IMG/VR virus record: IMGVR_UViG_3300034684_000299
Span: 64,001 to 128,000 of that record
Reading direction: 5' to 3' (one strand)
DNA length: 64,000 nt
From: a virus
Of this stretch, positions 27,624 to 56,069 are shown one piece after another; position 1 is the stretch's first letter, and each line of letters opens with the position of its first letter. Position numbers and translations under genes: made by a program. The notes under the pieces were generated by a model, which saw only the letters and a program-made list of their open reading frames with translations, was not told where the DNA came from and did not search any database.

Positions 27624-28694
27624 ATGACTTTAAAAGAGAGTATTAAACTCATACTAAAAAGTGGCTATGCACCATTATTGGTTGGACCAGCAGGGGTAGG
27701 AAAAACTGAGTTAGTGAAAGAAATAGCAAAAGAAGAAGGAAGAGATTGCATCATATTGAATCTCAGTGTTATGGAGCCAGGTGATTTATTAGGATTACCA
27801 AGTGATACCAACAAAGAAAAAACTGTTTATTTAAAACCAGAGTGGTTCCCTGAAAAGGAACATTCCATTGTATTCATAGATGAGATCAATAGAAGTAATC
27901 CATTGGTAAGAGCAGGCGTAATGCAATTGATTTTGGATAAAAGGATAATGAACAACATCTTACCAGCTGATACTTGGATAATTTCTGCTATGAATCCAAA
28001 TGAAGATGATCAAGGCGAATATGAAGTTGATGATTTTTCTGACCCAGCATTTCTTGATAGATTTGTACCGTTAAAATTTCAACCAACTCTCAGGGAATGG
28101 ACAGATTGGACAAAAAAGAACGAAATAAAATATATTCCCGATTTTATGAACCAAGAGATAACTCTATGGGAAATGACACAAAGAAATTTTGAGATGCCTA
28201 CAGTTCCCATTACTCCAAGAACACTTGAGAGGATGGATAAAATAACTCAAAAAGCATTCGTTGAATTTACAGATGTTGACCATGTTATAAAAGTTTTAGA
28301 GCCAATAACTATAAGCGTGTTTGGACCTAAAATTAGTCAAAAGTATTTGAATTATTTGAAAGAAAAACAGAAAGAAGTTATAACATTGGAAGATATATAT
28401 TCCGGAAAGTTCAAAACTATGAACGTAGCCGTAGCAGATAACTTATTAGAACTTGTAACTTCTATAACAACGACTTTCTTCAATGAAACCAAAGAATTTG
28501 TATATGACAAACTATCCAACGTAATAGATTTTTTGAAATTAGTTCCACCAGAAACCGCAGGAATATTTTACAGAGTAATATATGAAAGATATGAAGAACT
28601 ATCCAATAAATATCCACTCATGTTTGAAAATACGAAATTCTCTGTAGAAAGTTCCAGATTCTTGAGTGATACAAAAGAAACTCAAGAAAAATGA
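27624..28694 (+). CDS. MoxR-like AAA+ ATPase
   Basis: Walker A GPAGVGKT, Walker B FIDEINR, SAMNP sensor, DPAFLDRF arginine finger. Confidence 0.85.
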   Translation: MTLKESIKLILKSGYAPLLVGPAGVGKTELVKEIAKEEGRDCIILNLSVMEPGDLLGLPSDTNKEKTVYLKPEWFPEKEHSIVFIDEINRSNPLVRAGVMQLILDKRIMNNILPADTWIISAMNPNEDDQGEYEVDDFSDPAFLDRFVPLKFQPTLREWTDWTKKNEIKYIPDFMNQEITLWEMTQRNFEMPTVPITPRTLERMDKITQKAFVEFTDVDHVIKVLEPITISVFGPKISQKYLNYLKEKQKEVITLEDIYSGKFKTMNVAVADNLLELVTSITTTFFNETKEFVYDKLSNVIDFLKLVPPETAGIFYRVIYERYEELSNKYPLMFENTKFSVESSRFLSDTKETQEK

Positions 28695-34135: not shown

Positions 34136-37100
34136 TCACAAACACTTAGAATTGCCACAACTCAAGCAGGTTACACACCCCTCCGCATATTGTAAACTGT
34201 TTATTGCCCCACACACAGGGCATACTGAATTTCCTTCCTCATCAATATAAACATGATTTTTAGAATCATATTTCATATCTTTCATTTCTTCTTTTGTATA
34301 ATGTGTTTTCTTATTTACTTCTTTTTTGAAATATAATCTTGGTATATCTTTGATTATATTTTCCATTTCTTCTCCTATAGTTTTTGCATAAGTTCCTTTA
34401 GTCTTTTTTAGTTGTTTTATTATTTCGTCTGGGGACACACCAGCTCTTAAGGATATAGAAGCCAATCTACCAATGATCTCAGCAGTTTCATGACCATTGG
34501 ATAAAAAAATTTCTGATGGTGAGAAATTTTCTGGGTCTATTGTAATATTCATGTATGTCGTACCTTCTTGTGTTTTTACTTTTTTCGTTATACTTGGCAT
34601 AGTTTCTAATCTTGGTTTTGGTACAATTTTCTGTTTTTGATCCAAAAAGAAAGTAAATCCATCTACAGTATGTTTAGATTTTTTTGGTTCTTTACTTTTA
34701 GTAGTCAAAACTTGTGTTTGCAAACTACCATCTCTATAAATAGTAATACCTTTGACAAAATGTTTCATAGCTTGCAAATATATATCTTTAATATCTTCTA
34801 CTGTTGCTTCCTTTGGCATATTTATGGTTTTAGATACAGAAGCGTCTATATACTCTTGAAACGCTACTTGCATATATAAATGATCTATTGGTTTTATAGT
34901 TTGAGCAGTAACAAAAACCTTTTTCAGTTTTTCATCGATTTTATCTGAATACATAAGATTGTTCAAATCCATTATATCTTCTTCAAGTTTAGCTAGCTTA
35001 GGTACTTCTTTATAATTTTCAACTTTAGCAGCTTCACTTTGAAATTCTTCAACCTTATTCATTATTTCATTGTAATACTCTATATCTGTTTCTTTTAAAA
35101 ATGATTTTAATTCGTTGTTGATGTAAATTAGTGGTACTCTTTTGCCATCTTTATTAAGCATAAATCTGGTATATACCAAAGCAAAATTTGGTTCTAATCC
35201 AGAAGAGACATCAGCTAAATTAGATATAGACCCTGTTGGAGCTATTGTATTCAATTGAACATTCCTTTTATATTTTTTACCATCTGTTGAAAAATGTTCT
35301 ATTATTTTTTCGTTCAATCTTTTCAAATTATCAGTAAGGTCAGCTATCTCATCTGAATCTGTATGTAAAGGAAATGGAATATGTCCTTGCGGATATTTAG
35401 ACTTATCAAAATCAAGAAAATTACCTTTCTCTTTTGCTATTTCAGAACTTGCAACATGTGATAAATAAGATATAGCAGCTTGCATTTCCACCGCAATATT
35501 TCTAGCTTCTTTACTATCATATGGTATTCTTTTATTGTACAACATATCCGCAAATCCCATTATACCGAGTCCTAAAAATCTTTGTTCCCTAGCAGTTTTT
35601 TCTATTTCTTCTAAAGGATACACATTCATGGTAACAACGTCATCTAAAAACATAATGGTGTATCCTACTATTTCTTTAAATTTTTCAAAATCTGGAGTAC
35701 CTATTTTATAAAACTCTGGTAATTTCTCATTTATTATTTTCACATTCAAACTACCTAAATTACAAGATCCATGATTTGGTAATGGTTCTTCACCACAGTT
35801 GTGACATACCAATCCATTGACTACACCTGCATGTGTTTTTTCCATAGAAAAGTCATACACAGGTTCAATATCGTTCTGTACAATTTCAACCACTTTTGGT
35901 GAATTTTCTCTTATTGATTCTTTCACAGAATCTCTGTACTCTATATCAAAATAAGATTTGTATAAGATTTTTCTACCTAACATGTTACTAGCACTTTTCC
36001 AATTCAATGTCTCAGCATCATATACCTTATGGTCAGGAGTAACTCTTAATTCTTTGCCATTACTGAGCTTTAATGTTATTGTGTTCTTAGTTCCTGTTTT
36101 AAATACTTTTGATTTTACAAACTCTTTATCAAAAGGTGACCATACCATCACCGTTTGCCCGTCTAGTTCACCTATACTTATTTCACCTTTATCTGTTAAT
36201 AGTTTCTCATTATAAGCAAAACATGGATTTGTAGCAGTAACTGGAGTATTGTCTGAATTAGCATAATATTTGTTATGTCTGCCTAAGAACAATAAACCAG
36301 GATCACCAGTACCCCAAGCATTTTTTGAAATAATATCCAAAAATTCTCTTGCTGATACTTCTTTGTATTTTTGTCCATTAAAAACTAAGCTGAATTTATC
36401 ATCATGTTCATATTTATCTAAAAAGCTTTCTGGATCATCTATATTAACCGATATATTGAAATACGATAGTACACTATTACCATCGTTATTCTTTTTAGAG
36501 TTAATAAAATCCATAATATCGGGATGGTCATATCTCATTACAGCCATCTGTGCTGCTCGCCTTTTACCACCCTGTTGTATAGTAGAAGCGGTTGCATTGT
36601 ACACCTGCATAAAAGAAATAGGTCCTGAAGAATATCCAGAAGTACCATGTACTAATGCCCCTTTTGGTCTTAACACGCTGAAATCATACCCAACACCACC
36701 ACCATATTTCAATATAAGAGCTGCTTTTTTTGCATAATCAAATATACCTTCCATTGAATCGTCTTCAGTATAACTGACAAAACATGCCGATAACATATCG
36801 TGTCTATTGCGAGATTCATATATGAGCTCGTAATCCTTTAAACTCATCTCTTTTATATCTTTTTGGAACCATTCAATCGGCATAGCTTCTCCAGCATTAA
36901 ATAAAGTAGGAGAATTTGGAAGAAATATTCTTTTATTTATTAATTCATAATATATTTCTTCTTTTACCTTTATACGTTCCAAAAGTTCGTCATCTTCTAA
37001 TTCACTATCTACACCTTCTGCCGCCGCTATATATCTAGCCACTCTTCTTGCAACATCGCTCCATGTACTTTCAACATATTTGTCATTTCTCTTTGCAAAA

Positions 37101-37168
37101 TATCTGTCTTTTAAAATCTCTTGTGCATTTTCCGATACTAAATAATCATCAAATATATTTAACATCAA
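34136..37168 (-). CDS. nrdJ: Class II (B12-dependent) ribonucleotide reductase with intein
   Basis: PNSPTL, MLSAC, NP-C-GE active site split by an intein, TIAPTGSIS, GITIYRDGS, C-terminal Zn ribbon; no NrdB nearby. Confidence 0.9.
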   Translation of the reverse strand: MMLNIFDDYLVSENAQEILKDRYFAKRNDKYVESTWSDVARRVARYIAAAEGVDSELEDDELLERIKVKEEIYYELINKRIFLPNSPTLFNAGEAMPIEWFQKDIKEMSLKDYELIYESRNRHDMLSACFVSYTEDDSMEGIFDYAKKAALILKYGGGVGYDFSVLRPKGALVHGTSGYSSGPISFMQVYNATASTIQQGGKRRAAQMAVMRYDHPDIMDFINSKKNNDGNSVLSYFNISVNIDDPESFLDKYEHDDKFSLVFNGQKYKEVSAREFLDIISKNAWGTGDPGLLFLGRHNKYYANSDNTPVTATNPCFAYNEKLLTDKGEISIGELDGQTVMVWSPFDKEFVKSKVFKTGTKNTITLKLSNGKELRVTPDHKVYDAETLNWKSASNMLGRKILYKSYFDIEYRDSVKESIRENSPKVVEIVQNDIEPVYDFSMEKTHAGVVNGLVCHNCGEEPLPNHGSCNLGSLNVKIINEKLPEFYKIGTPDFEKFKEIVGYTIMFLDDVVTMNVYPLEEIEKTAREQRFLGLGIMGFADMLYNKRIPYDSKEARNIAVEMQAAISYLSHVASSEIAKEKGNFLDFDKSKYPQGHIPFPLHTDSDEIADLTDNLKRLNEKIIEHFSTDGKKYKRNVQLNTIAPTGSISNLADVSSGLEPNFALVYTRFMLNKDGKRVPLIYINNELKSFLKETDIEYYNEIMNKVEEFQSEAAKVENYKEVPKLAKLEEDIMDLNNLMYSDKIDEKLKKVFVTAQTIKPIDHLYMQVAFQEYIDASVSKTINMPKEATVEDIKDIYLQAMKHFVKGITIYRDGSLQTQVLTTKSKEPKKSKHTVDGFTFFLDQKQKIVPKPRLETMPSITKKVKTQEGTTYMNITIDPENFSPSEIFLSNGHETAEIIGRLASISLRAGVSPDEIIKQLKKTKGTYAKTIGEEMENIIKDIPRLYFKKEVNKKTHYTKEEMKDMKYDSKNHVYIDEEGNSVCPVCGAINSLQYAEGCVTCLSCGNSKCL
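35798..36223 (-). mobile_element. Mini-intein (142 aa) in NrdJ
   Basis: Starts CFAY, block B TPDH, ends VCHN followed by Cys+1; no endonuclease domain. Confidence 0.9.
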
Positions 37169-38989: not shown

Positions 38990-39270
38990 TCAAACAAGGA
39001 GGTAAGTCAACTACCCCACCCTATAGAGGGTGGAGCTTGTGATTAACAAGCTCAGTTGATTAGCCTCAGCCAGGGGGTATTAACCCTATCGGGCTACGTT
39101 ATATGGGAATATATAGTCACCATAGGATGCTCCACAAGTCCTATGCTCTGAGGGCAGTGGTTAAACATATCTGAGGGTAGGAGAAGTGCTGCTGCCATAC
39201 AAAACCCCATATAACATTGGCGATGTGGACTTACCACTACTTTGTAGTGAGTTATTACTCTTTAAGGAGG
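38990..39270 (+). ncRNA. omegaRNA of IscB (5' guide from the flank)
   Basis: Structured non-coding leader of about 260 nt with CTACGTTA and TAACATTGGCGATG blocks typical of IscB leaders. Confidence 0.7.
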
Positions 39271-40634
39271 GTTAATGTGGTATTTGTAATATCTAAAGAA
39301 GGTAAACCTTTAATGCCTACTAAAAATCATGCTAAAGTTAGAATACTACTAAAACACAAGAAAGCTAAAGTTATTAGAAGAAAACCATTTACTATTCAGC
39401 TTCTATATGAAACCACTACCTATACACAGCCTATTATACTTGGAATAGATAGTGGCTACAGTTATATTGGTTTTTCTGCTATTACTGAAAAGGAAGAACT
39501 AATATGTGGCGAAGTTAAACTAAGAAATGATATATCTGAGCTTCTTAAAGAAAGACGGATGTATCGTAGAATTAGGCGCAATAGACTTAGATATAGGAAA
39601 CCTAGATTTGATAACAGAATTTCATCTAAGAAAGAAGGTTGGTTAGCGCCCTCTATTAAACACAAGTTAGATTCTCATGTTAGGTTTATTAATTATCTTA
39701 AAAAGATATTGCCTATAGCTAACATAGTTGTAGAAGTGGCAAATTTTGATACTCATAAACTTAAAAACCCAAACGTAGTTGGTAAAGGTTATCAACAAGG
39801 TGAACAACAAGATTTTTGGAATGTAAGAGAATACGTTCTGTATAGAGATAATTATACCTGCCAGCTATGTGGCAAGAAAAACACCATACTTGAGGTACAT
39901 CATATAGGCTATTGGAAACAAGATAGAACAGATAGACCAGGCAATCTAATAACATTATGCACCAAATGCCACAATCCTAATAATCATAAAGAGGGAGGTA
40001 AATTGTATGGAATGAAGCCTGTTCAAAAACCATTAAAAGACGCAACATTTATGTCTACTATAAGATGGAAATTGGTCAATGCGCTGATGTGTGACTACAC
40101 TTACGGTTATATTACAAAATCCAAAAGAGTAAGTCTTGGTTTGGAAAAGACACATTATAACGATGCATTTTGCATAGCAGGTGGAATTAATCAACAGAGA
40201 ATAGAGCCTATCTATTTTGAGCAAATTAGGAGAAACAATCGTTCACTCGAAAAGTTCTATGATGCAAAATATGTTGATATAAGAGATAAGTCTATTAAAC
40301 CAGGACAAGAGCTTTTCTGTGGTAGAAGGACACGGAACAAAAACTTAAATGAAGAAAATCTTCATAAGTATCGTGGAGCTAAAAAATCAAAAGGCAGAAG
40401 AAATATTCGTAAGCAAAGATACGCTTATCAGCCTAAAGATATCGTTATCTTTAAGGGCAAAAAATATTCAGTTCAAGGTGTACAGAACAAAGGTAAATAT
40501 ATTAAGCTAATGGAAATGTCTAAGCCAGTCAAAACAGATTTAGTTAAGCCCTATATGTTTAGGAAAGGATTTAGTATGTTTTATAACTGCAATTCATCCC
40601 CCACTTACAGAAGTGGGAGTCTTCTTGCAGGAAA
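39006..40634 (+). mobile_element. IscB-encoding IS200/605-superfamily element
   Basis: Starts GTCAACTACCCC with a hairpin; right-end hairpin CCCACTT-acag-AAGTGGG; right boundary approximate. Confidence 0.8.
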
Positions 40635-40638
40635 ATGA
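39277..40638 (+). CDS. iscB: IscB RNA-guided endonuclease (RuvC + HNH)
   Basis: PLMP motif, RuvC-I GIDSG, Arg-rich RRMYRRIRRNRLRYRKPRF helix, HNH CQLCG..EVHH..LCTKCH; GTG start after AAGGAGG. Confidence 0.9.
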   Translation: MVFVISKEGKPLMPTKNHAKVRILLKHKKAKVIRRKPFTIQLLYETTTYTQPIILGIDSGYSYIGFSAITEKEELICGEVKLRNDISELLKERRMYRRIRRNRLRYRKPRFDNRISSKKEGWLAPSIKHKLDSHVRFINYLKKILPIANIVVEVANFDTHKLKNPNVVGKGYQQGEQQDFWNVREYVLYRDNYTCQLCGKKNTILEVHHIGYWKQDRTDRPGNLITLCTKCHNPNNHKEGGKLYGMKPVQKPLKDATFMSTIRWKLVNALMCDYTYGYITKSKRVSLGLEKTHYNDAFCIAGGINQQRIEPIYFEQIRRNNRSLEKFYDAKYVDIRDKSIKPGQELFCGRRTRNKNLNEENLHKYRGAKKSKGRRNIRKQRYAYQPKDIVIFKGKKYSVQGVQNKGKYIKLMEMSKPVKTDLVKPYMFRKGFSMFYNCNSSPTYRSGSLLAGK

Positions 40639-43479: not shown

Positions 43480-44640
43480 ATGTTAAAAACTTATAAATTT
43501 AGATTATACCCAAACGAAGATCAAAAAGTTTTAATTGAAAAACATATTGGTGCTTATAGATTTATATATAATTTTTTCTTAGAATATTCTACTAAAGCTT
43601 ATAAAAACACCAAAACCTCTACCAATGTATATAATTGGATGAAAGAATTAACTAAATTAAAAAAGACTAAAAAATATTCTTGGTTAAATGAAATAAATAG
43701 TCAAAGCCTTCAAGATAGTTTGTTTAATTTGGATAGAGCTTATCAAAGATTTTATAAAAAACAAACTGGTTATCCTAAATTTAAAAAGAAAAATAAAGTT
43801 AAATGGTCTTTTAGTGTTCCCCAATATATTAAATTAGAATATTCTACTAATAATATTAAATTTGGATATTTGTTTATACCTAAATTTAAAAAAGATCCTA
43901 TTAAAGTTCGTATTCATAGAATATTACCAAATGAATATAAAATTAAAACTGCAACCATTGTTAAAACTAAAAGTAATAAATATTATGTTTCATTAGTTAT
44001 AGAATACCAACCGCAAGAAAAAAATATTTCTTTTGTAAAAGTAATACCAGATGGAATTGGTATTGATGTTGGTATAAAAGATACTATTGTTTTAAGTAAT
44101 GGTGAAAAATATAATTATCCTATTAATTCTAAAAAATATGATAAAAAACTTAAACATCTTCATAAATCATTATCACGAAAATATAAATCTGATCAACCAA
44201 GATCAAAAAATTTTGAAAAAGATCGTATAAAACTTGCTAAAACTTATGAAAAAATTAATAATATAAAAGAAAACTGGATTCATCAAATTACCAAGAAATT
44301 AGTTGCTGAGAACCAAGGTAGCTATTTTTTCTTGGAAGATTTGAATATCCGAGGTATGTTTAAAAATCATAAATTAGCAAAAGAAATACAATTTCAATCT
44401 TGGTATAAATTTAAAGAAGTATTAACATATAAATCCATTTGGAATGGCAAACAAGTTATCTCTATCAATAGATATGAACCAAGTACTAAAACATGTTCTA
44501 AATGTGGTTATATAAATAATAATTTAACTTTAGATGATAGAAGTTGGACATGTCCAAATTGTAATTCATATCATGATAGAGATATCAATGCAGCCATAAA
44601 TATTAAAAATTTTGGTATCAACCAGCTGGTAGCTGGATAA
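43480..44640 (+). CDS. tnpB: TnpB RNA-guided endonuclease
   Basis: N-terminal HTH, RuvC GIDVG / LEDL / DRDINAA all intact, CSKC..CPNC Zn finger. Confidence 0.92.
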   Translation: MLKTYKFRLYPNEDQKVLIEKHIGAYRFIYNFFLEYSTKAYKNTKTSTNVYNWMKELTKLKKTKKYSWLNEINSQSLQDSLFNLDRAYQRFYKKQTGYPKFKKKNKVKWSFSVPQYIKLEYSTNNIKFGYLFIPKFKKDPIKVRIHRILPNEYKIKTATIVKTKSNKYYVSLVIEYQPQEKNISFVKVIPDGIGIDVGIKDTIVLSNGEKYNYPINSKKYDKKLKHLHKSLSRKYKSDQPRSKNFEKDRIKLAKTYEKINNIKENWIHQITKKLVAENQGSYFFLEDLNIRGMFKNHKLAKEIQFQSWYKFKEVLTYKSIWNGKQVISINRYEPSTKTCSKCGYINNNLTLDDRSWTCPNCNSYHDRDINAAINIKNFGINQLVAG

Positions 44641-52807: not shown

Positions 52808-52823
52808 TATTGGTATATATAAT
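52808..52823 (+). promoter_or_regulatory. Repeated TTGGTATATATAAT promoter motif
   Basis: Upstream of the 52845 ORF. Confidence 0.65.
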
Positions 52824-53300: not shown

Positions 53301-53591
53301 ATGACATATTTGGGTAATGCTTTCTCCCTTCAAATGTTGGCGGAGATTCCGTCAACTTTGAAAGTGGAAGAGGTTTCTTGGGGAGAAATTCCCGCGGGAG
53401 TTGTTTCAGTTGTCGGACACCAAGACACGGCCCGTGTCTTGGGTGTTCCGTTTAATAGAGTATCTATAACGTTGGAAAAGGGTGACATTTTATATGTTGC
53501 CCAGCTCCAAGGAGGACGTCTCCCAGAGGGGGCTACCACGCTCCCCGAGGGATTTAGTTTTAAATATTTGAAAGTCGAGATTGTTGATTAA
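53301..53591 (+). CDS. acrIII-1: AcrIII-1-like viral ring nuclease (DUF1874/B116 family)
   Basis: YLGNAFSLQML, VGHQDTA (catalytic His), NRVSITLEKGD and RLPEG motifs match the DUF1874 family as recalled. Confidence 0.8.
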   Translation: MTYLGNAFSLQMLAEIPSTLKVEEVSWGEIPAGVVSVVGHQDTARVLGVPFNRVSITLEKGDILYVAQLQGGRLPEGATTLPEGFSFKYLKVEIVD

Positions 53592-53605
53592 TCTCGACTT
53601 TCCTC

Positions 53606-53793
53606 CAACTAAGCACATTTTCCGTTCAGCTTAGTTGAAGTATGAACGAACGGATAGGTTTGCAGGCGTTGCCCCGCTACGTCTGCAAAACCGAAAACTA
53701 ATGCGGGGCTGCATTTCAAACCTAGCAGAATAAACTGTTGGGTTTGAAATGCAGAATTCTCACCTCGCTTCATAGAATCACTCCTCACCTCCT
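53606..53793 (+). ncRNA. Uncharacterised structured RNA (two H-type pseudoknots plus a long hairpin)
   Basis: Stems 53606-14/53629-37 with 53621-27/53648-54; 53659-69/53679-89 with 53671-77/53703-09; 19-bp hairpin 53710-53753; G:U pairs favour the plus strand. Confidence 0.6.
53609..53773 (-). CDS. Possible 54-aa antisense sORF
   Basis: AGGAGGTGAGGAG SD 7 nt before ATG; MKRGENSAFQTQQFILLGLKCSPALVFGF...; may be a by-product of an anti-SD tract. Confidence 0.25.
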   Translation of the reverse strand: MKRGENSAFQTQQFILLGLKCSPALVFGFADVAGQRLQTYPFVHTSTKLNGKCA

Positions 53794-53813: not shown

Positions 53814-53870
53814 GGAACGTGCGTACAGGCAGGCGTACGTTCCATCTTTTTTTTATTTTTTTTATTTTTT
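53814..53870 (+). terminator. Intrinsic terminator
   Basis: GGAACGTGCG/CGTACGTTCC stem followed by long T runs. Confidence 0.7.
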
Positions 53871-53875
53871 ATTTT

Positions 53876-53948
53876 GGGGACGAATGGGATTGACAAGGAT
53901 ACTGGTGCACATCCTTGGATGCGGGTTCGATTCCCGCCGTCTCCACCA
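53876..53948 (+). ncRNA. Mini-tmRNA: tRNA-like domain only
   Basis: Acceptor GGGGACG/CGTCTCC with G3:U70, A discriminator, encoded CCA, stemless D-loop ending GAC, T arm GCGGG-TTCGATT-CCCGC; helix 2 closed by a 10-nt loop. Confidence 0.8.
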
Positions 53949-53986: not shown

Positions 53987-54190
53987 ATGTTAACAGACAA
54001 AGAAATCTTTCAAGAAGTTTTAGATGTTATTGAAGGGAGGAAAAAAATAGAAGAAGTAGATGATATAGTCAGATGGGAATATGAAAGATGGATCAGATAC
54101 ATCAACGGTGGTATTCCCATTGAGACAGTTCTGAGAGAGTTGAAACACAGGTTGGAAACAGGAAACTTCCATCCTGAGTATGAAGAATAA
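53987..54190 (+). CDS. Small acidic hypothetical protein
   Basis: 67 aa, AAGGAGG SD. Confidence 0.65.
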   Translation: MLTDKEIFQEVLDVIEGRKKIEEVDDIVRWEYERWIRYINGGIPIETVLRELKHRLETGNFHPEYEE

Positions 54191-54208: not shown

Positions 54209-54237
54209 TTGACAAAAAGAGAAAAAAGTAGTATCAT
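54209..54237 (+). promoter_or_regulatory. Sigma70 promoter for the Y RNA/tRNA/Ro60 operon
   Basis: TTGACA-17 nt-TATCAT, about 8 nt before the first Y RNA. Confidence 0.8.
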
Positions 54238-54245
54238 AAATATAT

Positions 54246-54304
54246 GGGGTGGTGTGTGAAACGGTTACTTCGGTTGAGAATAATACCGTTTCCAGTTGTT
54301 CCCC
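54246..54304 (+). ncRNA. Short Y RNA-like RNA (no tRNA domain)
   Basis: Shares TGGTG..TGAA, TACTTCG and TGTTCC motifs with the two longer copies; GGGG/CCCC closing stem. Confidence 0.65.
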
Positions 54305-54323
54305 TCATTTTATAGAAAAAAGT

Positions 54324-54460
54324 ACTACGTTGGTGTAGTGAAGAGTTACTTCGCCTATTAAGCGGGAGGTCGCAGGTTCAAATCCTGCCTGTATGCTTCG
54401 GCATACAGTAGCTCAGCGGTAGAGCGCCATAAATTACTCTTCACGCCTGTTCCACGTAGT
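54324..54460 (+). ncRNA. yrlA: YrlA-type Y RNA with permuted tRNA-like domain
   Basis: Closing stem ACTACGT/ACGTAGT, T arm GCAGG-TTCAAAT-CCTGC, acceptor stem capped by TTCG, D arm GCTC-AGCGGTA-GAGC; upstream of Ro60. Confidence 0.85.
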
Positions 54461-54467
54461 ATTTCAT

Positions 54468-54612
54468 AGCTGTGTTGGTGTAATGAAGAGATACTTCGCT
54501 TGTTAAGCCGGTAATGCTGGTTCAACTCCAGCCTGAAGTATTCCATTGGAATACTCAGTCGTCTAACGGGTAGGACGCCGTAAATTTCTCTTCATGCTTG
54601 TTCCACACAGCT
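54468..54612 (+). ncRNA. yrlA: YrlA-type Y RNA with permuted tRNA-like domain
   Basis: Closing stem AGCTGTGT/ACACAGCT, T arm GCTGG-TTCAACT-CCAGC, capped acceptor stem, D arm GTC-TAACGGGTA-GGAC. Confidence 0.85.
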
Positions 54613-54633
54613 TTTCTTTTTTTATCATTTTTT

Positions 54634-54708
54634 TCTGGGTTAGCTCAAAGGAAGAGCAAGTGGCTGTTAACCACTTTGTTGGGGGTTCGAATCCCTCACC
54701 CAGAGCCA
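54634..54708 (+). tRNA. tRNA-Asn (GTT)
   Basis: Acceptor TCTGGGT/ACCCAGA, anticodon arm AGTGG-CTGTTAA-CCACT, TTCGAAT loop, G discriminator, encoded CCA. Confidence 0.93.
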
Positions 54709-54746: not shown

Positions 54747-56069
54747 ATGAGTAAAGTAAATGTGAAGAAAAGTTCCCCTTTAAAAACCCATGAAGGAGGG
54801 CCAGCAAGAGAAATAAACGCTTTGTGGAAGTTAAAACGTTCTCTCATGGCCTGTTTGCTCTGGGAAGATACCTTCTACGAAGAAGGTGTTGACATTGCCC
54901 AGAGAATAGAAACATTAGTGAGTGAAGTAAAACCCGAAGAAGCAAAAAATCTAGCAATTGAAGCTAGAGAGAATATGAAGATTAGGCATGCACCTCTTTG
55001 GGTAGTTCGTGCTATGGCACGATTACCTGAACACAAAAGACTAGTGTCTGAGACGCTGGAAAGAGTGATTCAGCGTCCAGATGAATTAACAGAATTTTTA
55101 GCTCTTTACTGGTTAGATGGGAAACAACCTCTATCTAACCAAGTAAAGAAAGGATTGGCGAAGGCGTTTACAAAATTTGACGCCTATCAACTCGCCAAGT
55201 ACAACAGGGATGGGCAAGTGAAACTGAGAGACGTTATGTTTCTCACCCATCCAAAACCGTTAAACTTAGAACAGGAAGAAATATGGAAACAACTCGTGGA
55301 TGGTACTTTACCTTCTCCAGAAACATGGGAGGTAGAATTATCTGCGGGGAAAGATAAAAAAGAAACATGGGAAAGATTACTTTCCCAGAATAAATTAGGA
55401 GCTCTAGCTTTATTAAGGAATTTGAGAAACATGGAAGAAGTCGGAGTGAATAGAAAATTAATTATTGAAGCACTCCGACGTATGAAAACTGAAAAAGTTC
55501 TTCCATTTAGGTTTATTGCTGCTGCGAGATATGCTCCTTCACTAGAACCATACCTTGAGGAAGCAATGTTTAAATGTATTCCTCAAGAGAAAATAATTCA
55601 AGGTAAAACAATTCTATTAATTGATGTCTCTGGTTCGATGGAAAGGGCTCTGTCTGAAAAATCAGATATGACAAGAATGGATGCAGCAGCAGGACTTGCC
55701 ATCTTAGCTAGAGAAATGTGTGAAGAAGTAAATGTATATACGTTTTCAGATAATGAAAAATTAGTACCACCTCGAAGGGGATTTGCTCTTCGAGATGCAA
55801 TAGTTAATAGTCAGTCTCACAATGGCACTTATCTTGGTAGGTCAATAAGTGCTATAAATCAAAAAGAACAATATGATAGAATAATAGTATTTACAGACGA
55901 GCAATCTGCAGATTCAGTACCTGCTCCGGAATCTAGAGGTTACATGATCAATGTAGCCAATTACGAGAATGGAGTAGGCTACGGATCTTGGACACACATT
56001 GATGGTTTTTCAGAAGCTGTCATAGATTATATATTGGAATATGAAAAATTGATTAATAATAATTATTAG
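54747..56069 (+). CDS. rsr: Ro60/Rsr TROVE-domain RNA-binding protein
   Basis: THEGG, LLWEDTFYEEG, QRPDELTEFL, YQLAKY, ALLRNLRNM; vWA MIDAS IDVSGSM and FTDEQ. Confidence 0.92.
   Translation: MSKVNVKKSSPLKTHEGGPAREINALWKLKRSLMACLLWEDTFYEEGVDIAQRIETLVSEVKPEEAKNLAIEARENMKIRHAPLWVVRAMARLPEHKRLVSETLERVIQRPDELTEFLALYWLDGKQPLSNQVKKGLAKAFTKFDAYQLAKYNRDGQVKLRDVMFLTHPKPLNLEQEEIWKQLVDGTLPSPETWEVELSAGKDKKETWERLLSQNKLGALALLRNLRNMEEVGVNRKLIIEALRRMKTEKVLPFRFIAAARYAPSLEPYLEEAMFKCIPQEKIIQGKTILLIDVSGSMERALSEKSDMTRMDAAAGLAILAREMCEEVNVYTFSDNEKLVPPRRGFALRDAIVNSQSHNGTYLGRSISAINQKEQYDRIIVFTDEQSADSVPAPESRGYMINVANYENGVGYGSWTHIDGFSEAVIDYILEYEKLINNNY

Follow-up and report, generated by a model that had tools for sequence, protein, structure and literature searches.

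A predicted 73-nt tmRNA gene limited to the tRNA-like domain in an uncultured phage, and its relatives in other phages

The analysed window, a 64,000-nt stretch covering positions 64,001 to 128,000 of IMG/VR virus record IMGVR_UViG_3300034684_000299, carries at positions 53876-53948 (+) a 73-nt gene that is very likely a real and functional RNA gene. It encodes a mini-tmRNA consisting of the tRNA-like domain (TLD) only, in a less common short form, and was assigned on the basis of a match to Rfam family RF00023, its fold, its conservation in sister contigs and compensated base pairs in contig L374. Its sequence and coordinates were exactly those given in the initial annotation, and the identification as a TLD-only tmRNA made there was upheld, as RF00023 matches from end to end and no coding region is present. 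The match (65.4 bits against a gathering score of 47, E 3e-23) spans model positions 1-374, with approximately 310 central positions swapped for 10 nt. PK1-4, the resume codon, the tag frame and H5 are all absent.

The acceptor stem is formed by RNA positions 1-7 and 63-69 (7 bp) and includes a G3:U70-type wobble. It is followed by a stemless D-loop of 12 nt (positions 8-19) of the GG...GAC type, with GAC at its end. Helix 2a (20-25/36-41, plus C19-G42) is closed by a 10-nt loop at positions 26-35, and after a GGA linker the canonical T arm at positions 46-62 leads to the discriminator A and an encoded CCA. The minimum-energy fold is exactly this TLD structure, in which the pairs of the acceptor have probabilities of about 1.0, those of helix 2a about 0.8 and those of the T stem 0.44. 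Compared to shuffled sequences the folding energy is not exceptional (z -1.33), and the structural support comes from the model match and covariation rather than from folding energy.

ARAGORN called neither a tRNA nor a tmRNA at 53876-53948, even with a relaxed score, and over the whole window it called tRNA-Asn alone. Together with the 12 nt between the stems, the lack of a D stem and the 10-nt loop, this led to the rejection of a canonical tRNA-Ala. Decoding of GCN codons by the UGC in the loop, as by a tRNA-Ala lacking its D arm, is hardly tenable either. The loop does end in UGCAC, which resembles the anticodon loop of tRNA-Ala(UGC), and this end is kept in L374. However, the loop has 10 nt and not 7, and UGC is preceded by G instead of U. 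The D-loop and linker have the motifs of tmRNA, the loop shows no conservation in the family described below, and GTGCA is also found in helix 2 of a full tmRNA (L417) and of longer mini-tmRNAs. The loop palindrome GTGCAC is likewise kept in L374. A kissing-loop dimer formed through it was discarded as not distinctive, as 6-nt palindromes occur in nine of 51 short-form loops, some of them inside internal stems. A permuted two-piece tmRNA (RF04321) was rejected because the gene has the standard order and gave only a partial 25.3-bit match to that model, under the gathering score of 47.

The mini-tmRNA is identical in contigs L298-L300, L401 and L403, with the neighbouring sequence varying; in the sister contigs with an unchanged copy, Ro60 is 92-93% identical. 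The more distant but syntenic contig L374 differs at seven of the 73 positions. Two helix 2a pairs are changed on both sides (21/40 from A-U to G-C and 23/38 from G-C to A-U), the remaining changes are unpaired (27 and 29 in the loop, 45 in the linker), and the acceptor stem, D-loop and T arm are unchanged. The covariation check on related phages set beforehand in the initial annotation thus returned two compensated pairs, from a small sample. On account of these pairs and the invariant acceptor, D-loop and T arm, comparison of the sister sequences indicates that the gene is under purifying selection and is not a decayed copy.

The opposite reading, a non-functional relic of a captured ssrA or an attachment-site remnant, is very unlikely. 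It would fit the lack of a direct promoter, the terminator-like hairpin upstream and the missing internal loop of the common form of the family, but not the changes in L374, which are either compensated or confined to unpaired positions, nor the similar simple-hairpin forms that recur across many lineages. An attP remnant of ssrA in particular was rejected, as already argued in the initial annotation from the two intact gene ends; in addition, no tyrosine integrase (PF00589) is encoded in the phage genome.

Pattern searches place the 73-nt RNA in a large, mostly phage-borne family of TLD-only tmRNAs. A scan for the TLD-only pattern with a middle of 10-40 nt matched at least 119 viral stretches, and 32 further matches have a middle of 41-71 nt; by pattern, 68 matches were obtained in GTDB genomes and 84 of the short form in metagenomes. 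A middle of 26-32 nt is present in 89 of the 133 members of the size-unbiased viral set. The common form, 80-83 nt long, extends beyond helix 2a with an A-rich internal loop and a further short hairpin, a motif shared by 152 of 161 members with a middle of 26-34 nt. With its plain 10-nt loop and neither of these elements, the 73-nt copy falls outside the common subtype, and its size class comprises only 19 viral contigs. Shorter forms, down to 62 nt, exist, so that several lineages do without the extension. The GG-to-GAC spacing of the 73-nt copy recurs in other members, and CCA is encoded in 85 of 291. Longer tag-less tmRNAs of 92-123 nt, with an extended helix 2 or extra hairpins, were seen in viral contigs L127-L158, and one contig bearing a mini-tmRNA also contains a Pistol ribozyme (L005:5883-5946).

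Base pairing was examined in 234 distinct family sequences at positions left free by the pattern and compared with column shuffles, kinship being ignored. The T stem is paired at 0.996-1.0 (0.40-0.66 shuffled) and helix 2 positions 1-6 at 0.98-0.75 (0.40-0.46 shuffled). A second search pattern that left the acceptor stem unspecified gave 55 new sequences with intact stems. All 55 of these relatives, found without requiring it, have G3:U70, which suggests that alanylation is selected in the family.

TLD-only genes were also observed in cellular genomes. Poribacteria have a conserved chromosomal copy of 85-86 nt (L159, L161, L163, L178, L186, L191, L196, L202, L206, L218 and other loci), which adjoins a gene for a PLP-dependent decarboxylase in six of six loci checked. 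A full-length tmRNA is present beside it in the four genomes checked, and one genome has two copies. This poribacterial gene looks vertically inherited and cellular. In a Saccharibacteria MAG, a 73-nt TLD-only gene (L173:3324-3396) lies approximately 0.9 kb from smpB, directly behind a terminator-like hairpin, and is the only tmRNA found in the incomplete 0.5-Mb assembly; other Patescibacteria carry TLD-only copies of 65-90 nt beside a full tmRNA.

A TLD-only RNA is not a novel kind of RNA, as both the form present in mycobacteriophage DS6A and the idea of SmpB titration have been published. DS6A is listed as having a 'TLD only' tmRNA by Hudson, Lau & Williams 2014 (PMC4131195), a statement repeated by Nawrocki et al. 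2025 (PMC11915505), who add mitochondrial and plastid forms without a CDS. The literature search returned no description of a wide phage family of such RNAs, with most subscription papers outside its scope. Like the 73-nt copy, the DS6A RNA (JN698994, approximately 28478-28560) is phage-encoded and has a TLD in standard order with G3:U70, a stemless D-loop ending in GAC, helix 2a, a T arm and an A discriminator, and no pseudoknots or tag frame. It differs in belonging to the common 80-83 nt form, with A-rich internal loop and second short hairpin, and in not encoding CCA, whereas the 73-nt copy has a plain 10-nt loop and an encoded CCA, comes from an unrelated phage and adjoins AcrIII-1-like, Y RNA and Ro60 genes. 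Both termini, the alanine identity elements, the D-loop and the T arm are also those of standard one-piece tmRNA (SsrA, RF00023), but this has the mRNA-like domain and pseudoknot ring, i.e. the roughly 310 model positions missing here. CDS-less organellar tmRNAs (mitochondrial RF02544 and the plastid form of about 65 nt in Mallomonadaceae; PMC11915505) are similar in size and also combine a TLD with the absence of a tag frame. They are, however, the native tmRNA of the organelle, in mitochondria together with an SmpB encoded in the nucleus, while the mini-tmRNA is viral and would coexist with the full tmRNA of the host.

The phage record is 185,437 bp long, derives from an uncultured phage and is estimated to be 91% complete. 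Neither SmpB nor a full or second tmRNA was found in it, and Pth and Pth2 are not encoded; RtcB and an RNA ligase are encoded elsewhere in the genome. Compared with cultured phages, the terminase reaches no more than 31% identity. Among named TnpB homologues, those of Petrotoga and Kosmotoga are nearest, at only 50-52%, and one sister contig was binned in a Thermoanaerobacterium MAG; as to the host, sequence similarity offers a weak hint of Thermotogota. The genome further contains, at 39006-40638 (+), a HEARO RNA (146 bits) and behind it a gene of the RRXRR/HNH (IscB-like) type, an IS605 TnpB gene at 43480-44640 and, at 34136-37168 (-), a ribonucleotide reductase gene that probably contains an intein (Intein_splicing in Pfam, E 2.5e-8, narrowly missing the cut-off).

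Upstream of the mini-tmRNA, the order is a promoter-like motif, an ORF, a terminator-like hairpin, an AcrIII-1-like gene, a pseudoknot RNA and a hairpin with U tract. The motif TGGTATATATAAT occurs four times in the genome (41634, 51168, 52222 and 52811, all on the + strand), heading short gene cassettes; its nearest upstream copy is at 52811-52823 (+), and in L374 it stands directly before the AcrIII-1-like gene. The latter, a B116/DUF1874-like gene at 53301-53591 (+), was recognised by Pfam PF08960 (E 4.6e-5, a match that falls short of the curated cut-off) and by PDB entries 2x4i (E 9e-7) and 6scf (E 3e-5) with the GH motif aligned, and its product is probably an AcrIII-1 ring nuclease. Its stop codon sits in a 12-bp hairpin, which is kept in L374. 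Just 5' of the mini-tmRNA, a terminator-like hairpin with a U-rich tract (53814-53875, +), conserved in the sister phages, would form the 5' leader of a read-through precursor. As no promoter-like site was found directly upstream of the mini-tmRNA, its expression would need such read-through. This is plausible, since tRNA-Asn is likewise preceded by a stem and U tract.

Downstream follow a 67-aa ORF (53987-54190, +; no Pfam or PHROG hit, 91% identical in L374) and a region (54209-54708, +) with a sigma70-type promoter matching at 11 of 12 positions, three Y RNA-like RNAs recognised by their folds and the tRNA-Asn(GUU) called by ARAGORN. The Y RNA-like RNAs are arranged in tandem at 54246-54612 (+), and paired changes were seen in the second of them in contigs L401, L403 and L374; a match to the YrlA model at 54330-54452 (E 1.6e-4) stays below the gathering score. 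The next gene, at 54747-56069 (+), encodes a Ro60/TROVE protein (Pfam PF05731, E 1.5e-22). The mini-tmRNA is surrounded by probable counter-defence and RNA-handling genes, namely AcrIII-1-like, Y RNAs, tRNA-Asn and Ro60. YrlA-like RNAs directly upstream of Ro60 are a feature shared with phage Ro60/YrlA loci reported by Chen et al. 2014 (PMC4201824); in the available part of that paper a mini-tmRNA alongside is not described, and the pairing is rare in the mini-tmRNA family. Ro60 was found near only two other of the 291 family loci, and RtcB and RNA ligase each near one of 235; SmpB was near none of the 235 non-GTDB loci, which average about 8 kb. No general link of the family to Ro60, RtcB or phage SmpB was seen at loci of this size, and by the Ro60 and SmpB counts such surroundings are specific to the phage group under study. 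With no SmpB in the phage and none near the 235 loci, the mini-tmRNA would rely on SmpB of the host.

The structured RNA between the AcrIII-1-like gene and the mini-tmRNA (53604-53760, +; fold z -6.8) consists of two H-type pseudoknots and a hairpin of 19-20 bp. Both pseudoknots are kept in L374, with three compensated pairs (two such pairs arose in one of 40 shuffles). Rfam, phages and plasmids gave no match, and a scan of viral contigs with its motif gave chance matches only. Two anti-Shine-Dalgarno-like tracts at 53758-53793 are invariant in the sister phages; the antisense ORF of about 54 aa that they could serve is frameshifted in L374 and L401, which makes a protein product unlikely.

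The mini-tmRNA could be one half of a split tmRNA, for which the pseudoknot RNA (53571-53760) would provide an H5-PK2-PK3-like body in trans. The two RNAs are adjacent and conserved together, the two H-type pseudoknots with a short linker are similar in architecture, and the stop codon of the AcrIII-1-like gene lies within a hairpin. The comparisons made with tmRNA bodies nevertheless render this highly improbable. RF00023 did not match 53571-53760 at E values up to 10, and a profile of 30 tmRNA bodies, with no Thermotogota among them, gave z 0.46, while left-out true bodies exceeded z 4 in six of eight cases. The best pairwise alignment with tmRNA bodies among 30 comparisons reached z 3.3, BLAST against 201 Bacillota genomes matched the T arm and U tract only, and by inspection no conserved complement to the loop or helix of the mini-tmRNA was present.

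The initial annotation had proposed that the RNA acts either as a decoy that blocks trans-translation or as a tag-free rescue RNA. These remain the two leading readings. The best explanation, which we regard as moderately likely, is that the RNA, once alanylated, competes for host SmpB and EF-Tu and so dampens SsrA tagging. The RNA would be transcribed by read-through from an upstream phage promoter, cut by host RNase P at G1 and trimmed at the encoded CCA; RNase P processing and recognition of G3:U70 by AlaRS are established for tmRNA (PMC3968760, PMC8363625). Charging with alanine would proceed through G3:U70 and the A discriminator, and host SmpB could bind at the D-loop elbow, along with EF-Tu, all of these determinants being present. 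SmpB is known to bind the TLD elbow, and the TLD-SmpB-EF-Tu complex binds stalled ribosomes (PMC3968760). Having no tag frame, the RNA may then compete with host tmRNA for SmpB and stalled ribosomes, so that fewer proteins from broken or non-stop phage mRNAs would be SsrA-tagged and degraded.

Such competition would match the inhibition published for a DS6A-type RNA in E. coli: as summarised in PMC4131195 and PMC11915505, citing Mao 2009, a TLD-like molecule is a strong inhibitor of tmRNA whether or not it can be charged, and may act by titrating SmpB. The competitor reading is favoured by the presence of all TLD elements with no coding region, the purifying selection, the family-wide pairing, G3:U70 in 55 of 55 relatives, the reliance on host SmpB and neighbours that fit a counter-defence setting. 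The lack of a promoter-like site directly upstream and the terminator-like hairpin preceding the gene weigh against it, as does the question of what a phage would gain from blocking rescue. A pure sponge also does not explain the invariant G3:U70, since the inhibition so summarised needed no alanylation, and the chromosomal copy that Poribacteria keep beside a full tmRNA indicates that such an RNA does not act against the cell in every case.

The last two observations keep the main rival alive, although we consider it rather unlikely. Here the alanylated TLD with SmpB and EF-Tu would enter the empty A site and accept the nascent chain, and the ribosome would be recycled, through drop-off and hydrolysis or repeated addition of alanine, with no degradation tag of the host being added. 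Invariant G3:U70, unneeded for titration, points to ribosome engagement, and the poribacterial copies coexist with full tmRNA; moreover, tag-less tmRNAs are kept with SmpB in mitochondria and some plastids (PMC11915505), and a truncated tmRNA-SmpB-EF-Tu complex binds stalled ribosomes (PMC3968760, PMC8363625). On the other hand, the RNA offers no stop codon at which the chain could be released, neither Pth nor Pth2 is encoded by the phage, and the one experiment reported (PMC11915505) showed inhibition. That the mini-tmRNA and the phage family would be an active rescue factor and not a passive SmpB sponge is likewise rather doubtful; the alanylated RNA with host SmpB would in that case take over nascent chains from ribosomes stalled on cut phage mRNA and free them with no SsrA tag, as an early counter-defence beside AcrIII-1 and Ro60/Y RNA. 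If so, helix 2 could be cut back to seven base pairs without loss of this activity, as the 73-nt form would demonstrate.

It is improbable that the RNA acts instead as a decoy, or as a spare substrate, against host defences whose proteins sense or cleave tmRNA or tRNA-like RNA, in concert with the Y RNA/Ro60, tRNA-Asn, RtcB and RNA ligase genes. Its clustering with AcrIII-1-like, Y RNA and Ro60 genes would agree with such a role, as would the RtcB and RNA ligase genes elsewhere in the genome and the CoCoNuT systems, for whose SmpB-like domains tmRNA binding has been predicted (PMC11090510). Against it speak the predicted nature of the CoCoNuT link and the low counts of Ro60, RtcB and ligase at family loci given above.

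The TLD-only RNA has been described from one phage, and the literature found does not call the type widespread. The hundreds of copies, and an alanine identity pair that does not vary, suggest that phages commonly act on trans-translation through this RNA. To this the 73-nt copy contributes a natural variant that is compact, a sister allele with compensated changes and a counter-defence neighbourhood. It would be a convenient construct with which to tell SmpB titration from tag-free rescue.
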